From positions 15,157 through 79,156 of IMG/VR virus record IMGVR_UViG_3300033067_000859: DNA of 64,000 bases; one strand, given 5' to 3'. The notes beneath the pieces are model-generated. The model did no database searches, was not told where the DNA came from, and saw only the letters and a program-made list of their open reading frames with translations. This document shows, in pieces, positions 43,540-44,600 of this stretch (the first letter of the stretch is position 1; every line of letters begins with the position of its first letter). The DNA comes from a virus. Taxonomy: Duplodnaviria > Caudoviricetes. A program made the position numbers and the translations under genes.

Positions 43540-43758
43540 TTAAAAGAATGGCATTTTACTAGATTTAGTTATTTCTAAGTTCTCTTTAATAAGCTTAGAT
43601 ATGAGATCACGTTCTGTTGCATCTAACATCATAGCATCGTCGTAGGTTAATCCACCACGCATATACCAACTCATTCTAAGTGCTTCGTCTTTTAAGGCCC
43701 TTGACTCTTTTTCGTATCCTTCAATGAGCCTCATAATAGACTCATTGCTTAGGGTCAA
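43540..43758 (-). CDS. tail/baseplate assembly chaperone extension, probably translated as a -1 frameshift fusion with the upstream gene
   Basis: The track start is TTG with no SD; the ORF is in the -1 frame of the slippery site at 43776-43770. Confidence 0.65.
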   Translation of the reverse strand: MTLSNESIMRLIEGYEKESRALKDEALRMSWYMRGGLTYDDAMMLDATERDLISKLIKENLEITKSSKMPFF

Positions 43759-44600
43759 GAGCCTAGCTCGAAAAAAGCTGCATAGTCGAACGTGACTTGA
43801 ATATCAAAAGGATGATTGCATGAGCTACAATTAACATGCATGGGTTTAATAGCCCCAACATTATTAATTTCTGCTAGTCTTGCCTGTACTGCTTTTGCTA
43901 CAGTTGACTTAGAATTTTGATAAAACTCATTGATGTGTGCTTTGTTAGTTACTCGCACCCCATCTGCTTCTATGTATTCTGTACTCGATGTAAGAGTTGC
44001 AGCGCCAATTTCAATGAGTTTTTCCATGTGCTTGGCAATTTCGATTCCACGAACTGTTGGGTCTAAGTCAGTGCTTTCGATAGTTTGTAACAGTTTCTGC
44101 TCTTCGTACTGGGCCTGATTAGTTTGATTCAAGCTAAAATACGGCTGGGGTGCCAATTTAACTTTAACCTCTCCCGATTCAACAAGAGTCGCATAGTCCG
44201 GTAATCTAATTTGATCTAGCGCAGTTTGTAAGCTTAGGCCGTAATTATCGATTTCTTTACAAGCTGGGCACTGACTAGTAAATTCCATAGTTGCCCCGTA
44301 ACTGGCAATACGTATGGCAATGATCACAGCATCAACGTCAATGCTGGGCATTCTCCAAGCATCGACAATTTCTGGACAGCAGCTCTGGATCACACTTACT
44401 ACCCCGGCGCCATTCATAAGAGCATCGGGTGTTCTTAGGGTAATTTCATCCCTAGTAGTCATAGGATATATAGCAACTTCGCCATTAACTGGCATTTTGA
44501 TTGCATCTTCTGGCCAATATTGCCCTTTGCTGGGCAATTTCAAGTAAATTGCTGGTTGTCTGAAGTGCTTGGCGAGTGGATTGTTTGACGTAGGATCCAT
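43755..44600 (-). CDS. gp26: baseplate hub assembly chaperone, T4 gp26-like
   Basis: YLKLPSKG, IYPMTTRDEITL and DVDAVIIAIRIASYG; two CxxC motifs (CPAC, CSSC). Confidence 0.75.
   Translation of the reverse strand: MDPTSNNPLAKHFRQPAIYLKLPSKGQYWPEDAIKMPVNGEVAIYPMTTRDEITLRTPDALMNGAGVVSVIQSCCPEIVDAWRMPSIDVDAVIIAIRIASYGATMEFTSQCPACKEIDNYGLSLQTALDQIRLPDYATLVESGEVKVKLAPQPYFSLNQTNQAQYEEQKLLQTIESTDLDPTVRGIEIAKHMEKLIEIGAATLTSSTEYIEADGVRVTNKAHINEFYQNSKSTVAKAVQARLAEINNVGAIKPMHVNCSSCNHPFDIQVTFDYAAFFELGS
43770..43776 (-). other. putative -1 ribosomal frameshift heptamer T TTT TTC
   Basis: GCT TTT TTC GAG has correct X XXY YYZ phasing; the -1 frame reads F-F-R-A-R-L into ORF 43540-43758. Confidence 0.7.

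Follow-up and report, generated by a model that had tools for sequence, protein, structure and literature searches.

A conserved T_TTT_TTC heptamer probably allows the T4 gp26-like gene of a giant T4-related myovirus to be decoded in two ways

Results

The gp26-like gene and its surroundings

The DNA analysed here, hereafter the window, is a stretch of 64,000 nucleotides taken from a 79-kb IMG/VR contig, the completeness of which is estimated at 23%, and the sequencing runs found to contain the locus described below are DNA runs of riverine and freshwater metagenomes, no RNA run being among them. T4-type genes encountered on the contig include those encoding the portal protein gp20, a prohead protease, the major head protein, gp5-, gp25-, and gp6-like baseplate proteins, a late sigma factor, and gp46/gp47, as well as two sheath-like genes. 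A gene for a protein resembling gp26 of phage T4 was read directly from the sequence on the minus strand; it encodes 281 aa and its 3' end reads ..GCA GCT TTT TTC GAG CTA GGC TCT TGA. A slippery heptamer is located within this 3' end, and a second frame, displaced by -1, stays open beyond the stop codon of the gene (Table 1).

Table 1. Positions of the gp26-like gene, the associated signals, and the divergent neighbouring gene in the window
Feature	Position	Strand	Remarks
Zero-frame ORF, short form (281 aa)	43755..44600	-	PF12322 T4_baseplate, gp26-like, invariant C111, C114, C258, C261
Slippery heptamer T_TTT_TTC, X_XXY_YYZ phase	43770..43776	-	Five codons ahead of zero-frame stop
-1 frame extension, 76 codons from heptamer C, stop 43542-43540	43540..43770	-	Open frame
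Conserved linear stretch A-G-G-C-T-Y-T-T	43757..43764	-	6-13 nt 3' of heptamer, encodes R3-L4-L5
Terminator-like hairpin followed by ATTTCTT	43510..43529	-	Just past -1 ORF stop; consensus scan
776-aa protein, probable tail tape measure	44653..46983	+	Divergent from gp26-like gene

An earlier note on this DNA had claimed a T TTT TTC at 43776-43770 in exact X XXY YYZ phase, which is what the sequence reads at this position. Two further claims of that note, a -1 frame that enters the downstream ORF without a stop and products of 281 and about 353 aa, were borne out as well: the frame runs through 76 open codons as far as 43540, and the computed lengths amount to 281 aa for the zero-frame product and 277 + 76 = 353 aa for the predicted long product, in which residues 1-277 would be followed by a peptide beginning R-A-R-L-L-T-L-S-N-E-S-I-M-R. 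On the 5' side of the slip site, the -1 frame comprises 11 open codons only. The hairpin found past the end of the -1 ORF is likely to mark the end of the transcription unit; it was the one site returned by a terminator consensus scan against a mean of 1.3 in shuffles, a result that alone is not significant.

The gp26-like gene had also been described as placed divergently from a tape measure gene at 44653. The divergence is present in the window, and the same arrangement is shared by Phosso, Callisto, RaK2, PBECO4, and GAP32, and the neighbour is a probable tape measure protein. The encoded 776-aa protein is rich in Ala, Gly, and Gln and contains a Gly-rich hydrophobic segment near its C-terminus; its sole database match covers 42 aa at 57% identity in the Salicola phage CGphi29 protein annotated as tape measure, and the RaK2 record describes the product of the syntenic gene as a structural protein of the virion with similarity to a tape measure. 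No Pfam or PHROG match and no similarity to T4 gp29 were detected for this protein. The gp20-like portal gene follows at 47014.

Elsewhere in the window, a single ORF of 4078 aa at 15937-28173 on the minus strand, which contains FG-GAP repeats and the carbohydrate-binding module CBM_5_12 and adjoins baseplate wedge genes, probably encodes a giant protein that forms a fibre or recognises the host. Between a dCMP deaminase gene and the gp26-like locus, the plus strand carries a gene for a SegE-type GIY-YIG homing endonuclease at 42392-42826 (Pfam E = 1.4e-32), which is a possible mobile insertion. The 71-aa ORF at 42823-43038 on the plus strand matches PF12843 QSregVF_b (E = 3.9e-9), a putative quorum-sensing-regulated virulence factor that one would not expect among phage structural genes. 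Furthermore, the adjacent plus-strand genes at 58249-60276 and 60295-61692 both match one tail sheath family, phrog_12249, and this points to duplication of a sheath gene.

Family assignment of the 281-aa protein

The 281-aa protein was assigned to PF12322 with an E value of 3e-13 and a score of 50.4 bits (cut-off 24.5), its residues 36-278 aligning to profile positions 9-219 of 219, and it also matched phrog_150, annotated as 'baseplate hub' (E = 1.7e-16). PF12322 was likewise matched by 21 out of 21 aligned homologues, and metagenomic homologues numbered 2620, all of them PF12322 among the matches listed. The closest named relatives, at 25-32% identity, are encoded by the jumbo phages Phosso, Atu_ph07, Callisto, RaK2, GAP32, and PBECO4. 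An AlphaFold model of the protein (mean pLDDT 86) displays a mixed alpha/beta fold with four invariant Cys residues.

The earlier note had proposed that the gp26-like gene and its extension are the equivalent of the G/GT pair of phage lambda. A G/GT-like way of working is supported by the comparisons presented below, but membership of the G/GT family was not detectable. Besides PF12322, the Pfam matches of the 21 family members consisted of weak zinc-ribbon families, and no TAC family appeared at E values up to 1, a search for which HMMER may fall short. Foldseek comparison of the 281-aa fold with the PDB produced no match with an E value under 0.4, PDB sequences searched with a profile likewise gave no matches, and VIA-align returned generic helical-hairpin matches only (residues 151-212, Z up to 7.4).

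Conservation of the heptamer and its codons

Loci for comparison were gathered from 80 viral contigs (45-68% identity), retrieved by alignment-based search, and from seven cultured jumbo phages; a blastn search of the locus against phages gave no match, and a single-sequence pattern search of the viral contigs found no relatives. T_TTT_TTC was present in phase in 84 out of 84 homologous loci, with protein identities of 25-70%, and was situated 3-8 codons ahead of the zero-frame stop. These loci include Phosso, Atu_ph07, Callisto, RaK2, PBECO4, GAP32, and a Vibrio jumbo phage, and the heptamer is likewise present in S-PM2, LPCS28, and LG08. The alignment of homologues that the earlier note had called for thus found both the heptamer and an open -1 frame to be kept in all 84 loci.

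Codon usage was compared across 77 non-redundant loci. F276 is encoded by TTT and F277 by TTC in each of them, TTC being the minor Phe codon (228 occurrences versus 598 of TTT), and the codon that precedes the Phe pair (AGT, AAT, GCT, ACT, or CAT) ends in T in 77/77. Twelve other conserved columns of amino acids with two codons (Phe, Asp, Asn, Cys, Tyr) mix both codons, as exemplified by F13 (TTT in 60 loci and TTC in 15). Synonymous sites have therefore reached saturation, and selection acts on the heptamer at the nucleotide level.

A chance origin, with the heptamer and the open frame downstream of it being functionless, would agree with the number of TTTTTTC copies in the window, which at 15 is no higher than the approximately 20 expected by chance; as the heptamer alone is not rare, its significance rests on conservation. 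The conservation of heptamer, frame, and peptide over loci with saturated synonymous sites effectively refutes this explanation and leaves it next to no probability.

The extension peptide and its start codons

In all complete loci except one the -1 frame is open for approximately 70-77 codons. The sole complete locus with an early -1 stop (IMGVR_UViG_3300020160_001689) has 52 codons instead of 76; either decay of this copy or an error in sequencing may account for the difference. Residues R1, L5, W35, M37, R38, and G39 of the extension are invariant, and conservation sets in at the first codon (R-x-R-L-L). The extension is predicted to form a three-helix domain (mean pLDDT 88), and hhalign comparison of the window-clade extension with those of the RaK2/PBECO4 type (99%, E = 7.7e-18) shows the two to be homologous. 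No Pfam or PHROG family was found for the downstream ORF of 72 aa. When 58 extension peptides were compared with the PHROGs, nothing in phrog_150 or phrog_634 was matched and only a weak match to phrog_549 was obtained (function unknown, 11 members; best E 0.0019), and comparison of the extension fold with BFVD gave no match below E = 0.8.

The earlier note had stated that a TTG is the only start available to the small ORF. This TTG is present at 43758, but an in-frame ATG is found at 43734 as well, and initiation at the latter would remove 12 conserved residues. Both codons could be taken to favour two separate genes, with the small ORF being initiated alone, either by TTGA/ATGA coupling or from an internal ATG. 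Moreover, an ATGA stop-start overlap at the -1 ORF occurs in Phosso and Atu_ph07, where coupling may accordingly supplement the slip, and public records annotate distinct CDSs (S-PM2 'gp51', Phosso, PBECO4, GAP32). Against separate genes, neither the ten initial codons of the -1 ORF nor the sequence upstream contains ATG, GTG, or TTG in 37 of the 77 loci, no start codon precedes codon 30 in 16 loci, and the -1 ORF of Callisto contains no start codon anywhere, nothing being annotated there in the record. The TTG at 43758 is the codon of Leu5, which is TTG in just 38 of the 77 loci, and R1, L4, and L5, positioned upstream of most candidate starts, are conserved; the invariant T_TTT_TTC would, in addition, be left unexplained. 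On the basis of these sequences, independent initiation is excluded as a general mechanism for the -1 ORF, and separate genes are a very unlikely explanation of the locus.

RNA signals downstream of the slip site

RNAalifold analysis of 74 loci revealed no consensus structure after the heptamer, and folds of the individual loci ranged in z from -3.8 (the window) to +1.0. The small GAGC-UAG-GCUC hairpin put forward in the earlier note does form part of the minimum-energy fold of the window, but it immediately adjoins the heptamer and lacks conservation. The 10-bp hairpin of the window, located 22 nt past the site, and the 4-bp hairpin were both rejected as stimulators, each being lineage-specific.

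The absence of a conserved stimulatory RNA structure is among the observations that would suit transcriptional slippage, in which RNA polymerase adds an extra U at the six-U run to give a U7 mRNA encoding the identical 353-aa protein. The run is indeed a homopolymer, and as the product of a ribosomal or a transcriptional slip would be the same, the two can't be separated by sequence comparison. However, slippage-prone runs in bacteria and phages usually measure 8 or more, whereas the T run at this site counts only six bases, is never longer in the 77 loci, and is always followed by C as the seventh base. Since the motif is, moreover, a canonical X_XXY_YYZ heptamer in phase with the gene, transcriptional slippage is considered distinctly unlikely.

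Conservation 3' of the heptamer is found in the linear sequence. A G directly follows the heptamer in 76 of the 77 loci, and the stretch A-G-G-C-T-Y-T-T displays a per-position conservation of 75-100% in the window and in the loci numbered L005-L084. In 16 loci the zero frame has already ended at this point; the codons are still AGG CTY TTR in these loci, none of which uses CTG or TTR for Leu4. Given the restriction to AGG for Arg and CTY for Leu, the coding of R-L-L alone would be an insufficient explanation of the stretch.

Relation to gp26 and gp51 of T4

T4 gp26 (208 aa) and gp51 (249 aa) both match PF12322 over its full length, gp51 having approximately 48 extra residues at its C-terminus. 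The statement in the earlier note that T4 is usually cited as lacking an arrangement of this kind is out of date, as T4 possesses a short and a long paralogous PF12322 gene, 26 and 51. T4 gp26 ends in ..EFFELL, with the codons TTC TTT and without the heptamer, and gene 25 follows directly after. Since FF is conserved in the T4 gp26 protein, the T run owes its phase in part to the protein.

T4 contains two PF12322 genes per genome, and the nine complete heptamer-bearing genomes (Phosso, Atu_ph07, RaK2, PBECO4, S-PM2, LG08, LPCS28, Callisto, and Vibrio phage 2.275.O) contain one each; one PF12322 gene is found on the contig of the window, which represents approximately 23% of a genome, and a second may lie in the remainder. 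The extensions of S-PM2, LPCS28, and LG08 are similar to the gp51 tail (residues ~202-249) as judged by BLASTP (5.5e-7) and hhalign (88%, E = 2.9e-6). For the window-clade extension, the best match in gp51 is again the tail (202-249), at the weak level of P = 7e-4 and 26% probability, versus P 0.24 for a reversed control, and the S-PM2-type and window-clade extensions were matched to each other by hhalign at 39%. An HMM of the extension gave nothing significant against the six-frame translated T4 locus, and hhalign of the fused alignment with single T4 gp51 or gp26 sequences aligned the central region alone. Taken as a sequence relationship, the part of gp51 to which the extension would correspond is the C-terminal tail, a match that is firm in the cyanophage type and weak in the window clade. 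The equation of the short form with gp26 and of the long form with gp51 is well supported in general, and in the window clade it draws in part on position and transitive similarity.

Discussion

The comparative evidence supports the central claim of the earlier note, a programmed -1 shift that joins the gp26-like gene to an ORF without a start of its own. The locus is very probably a single gene for a tail/baseplate-hub assembly chaperone of a giant T4-related myovirus that is decoded in two ways. Most ribosomes would complete the zero frame at the TGA at 43755 and produce the 281-aa counterpart of T4 gp26. A minority would slip by -1 with a pair of tRNA-Phe on the UUU UUC of U_UUU_UUC, the tandem tRNAs re-pairing on UUU UUU with CGA (Arg) as the next codon, and would add the 76-aa three-helix domain to yield the 353-aa counterpart of T4 gp51. 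We infer from the sequences that the slip is ribosomal, with an efficiency that would make it the minority event, and that both products would be present. By analogy with lambda G/GT and T4 gp26/gp51, both forms may act as chaperones serving the assembly of hub, tape measure, and tail tube, in which case their absence from the virion would be expected.

A conserved -1 frameshift in genes that encode tail assembly chaperones in long-tailed phages was reportedly described by Xu, Hendrix and Duda in 2004. The locus in the window resembles lambda gpG/gpGT in that a -1 slip would take place near the 3' end of a small assembly gene adjoining the tape measure gene (a probable one in the window), resulting in an abundant short and a rare long form with a common N-terminus. 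It differs in arrangement, as the chaperone gene of lambda immediately precedes the tape measure gene and shares its strand, whereas that of the window is divergent and on the minus strand. Furthermore, the window protein is much larger than lambda gpG and contains a four-Cys zinc-ribbon-like site, and its heptamer differs from that of lambda, which is G_GGA_AAG.

The likeness to T4 gp26/gp51 extends to the PF12322 domain, the FF that ends the shared domain, and a short form and a long form with a helical tail, both predicted in the case of the window, and in both phages the genes adjoin hub genes and known or probable tape-measure genes. T4 encodes these forms by two genes without the heptamer (TTC TTT), whereas the window phage has one gene plus the slip site; its shared domain is approximately 70 residues longer than that of T4, and its extension comprises 76 aa compared with approximately 48 in T4 gp51. 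S-PM2 (cyanophage), LPCS28 (Straboviridae), and LG08 (Rhizobium phage) share with the window a single PF12322 gene with an in-phase T_TTT_TTC, which in these phages lies 3-4 codons before the stop and is followed by a -1 ORF of 57-62 codons. Their S-PM2-type extension is shorter and clearly gp51-like, whereas that of the window clade is longer and carries a W-Y-M-R-G-G motif.

The long form is absent from the records of Phosso, Atu_ph07, Callisto, RaK2, PBECO4, GAP32, Vibrio phage 2.275.O, and S-PM2. In these eight records its place is taken by a 'hypothetical' CDS, either truncated or separate, or left empty, and in none of them is such a CDS joined to the gp26-like CDS. The S-PM2 record, for example, contains 'gp26' and a 57-aa 'gp51' as two unjoined CDSs. 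In Atu_ph07 a 40-aa fragment of the -1 ORF is annotated; in Callisto and RaK2 the -1 ORF is unannotated.

T4 gp26 and gp51 are listed as hub assembly chaperones by Leiman et al. 2010 (PMC3004832, Table 2). According to the accounts given in PMC10885494 and PMC12846349, Vladimirov, Gautam and Davidson (Virology 2022;566:9-15) identified gp26/gp51 as the TAC-N/TAC-NC of T4-like phages. The 2022 paper is described in PRFect (PMC10885494) as reporting that in some T4-like phages a short TAC gene plus a long fused gene replace the frameshift, and it is cited in PMC12846349 for poly-T slippery sequences in T4-like TAC-N genes. To the extent covered by these two accounts, the chaperone pair was thus published in 2022, and the locus in the window would be a new example and no new principle.

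The conservation of linear sequence without structure leaves room for a different view of the signal. Recoding could be free of structure and proceed via UUUUUUC-G combined with the linear A-G-G-C-U-Y-U-U, or the event could be transcriptional, a reading that we regard as rather unlikely. If true, A-G-G-C-U-Y-U-U would constitute a new kind of 3' stimulator for bacterial -1 frameshifting. The combination of an invariant U_UUU_UUC with no conserved structure hence makes these loci a clean natural test case for what U_UUU_UUC on its own achieves in bacteria.

With a single gp26-like gene very probably decoded in two ways, the rule that long-tailed phages make a short and a long chaperone would be extended to the giant phages of the RaK2/Atu_ph07 type, and it would also cover their many uncultured freshwater relatives. 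The T4 gene pair 26/51 would then look derived.
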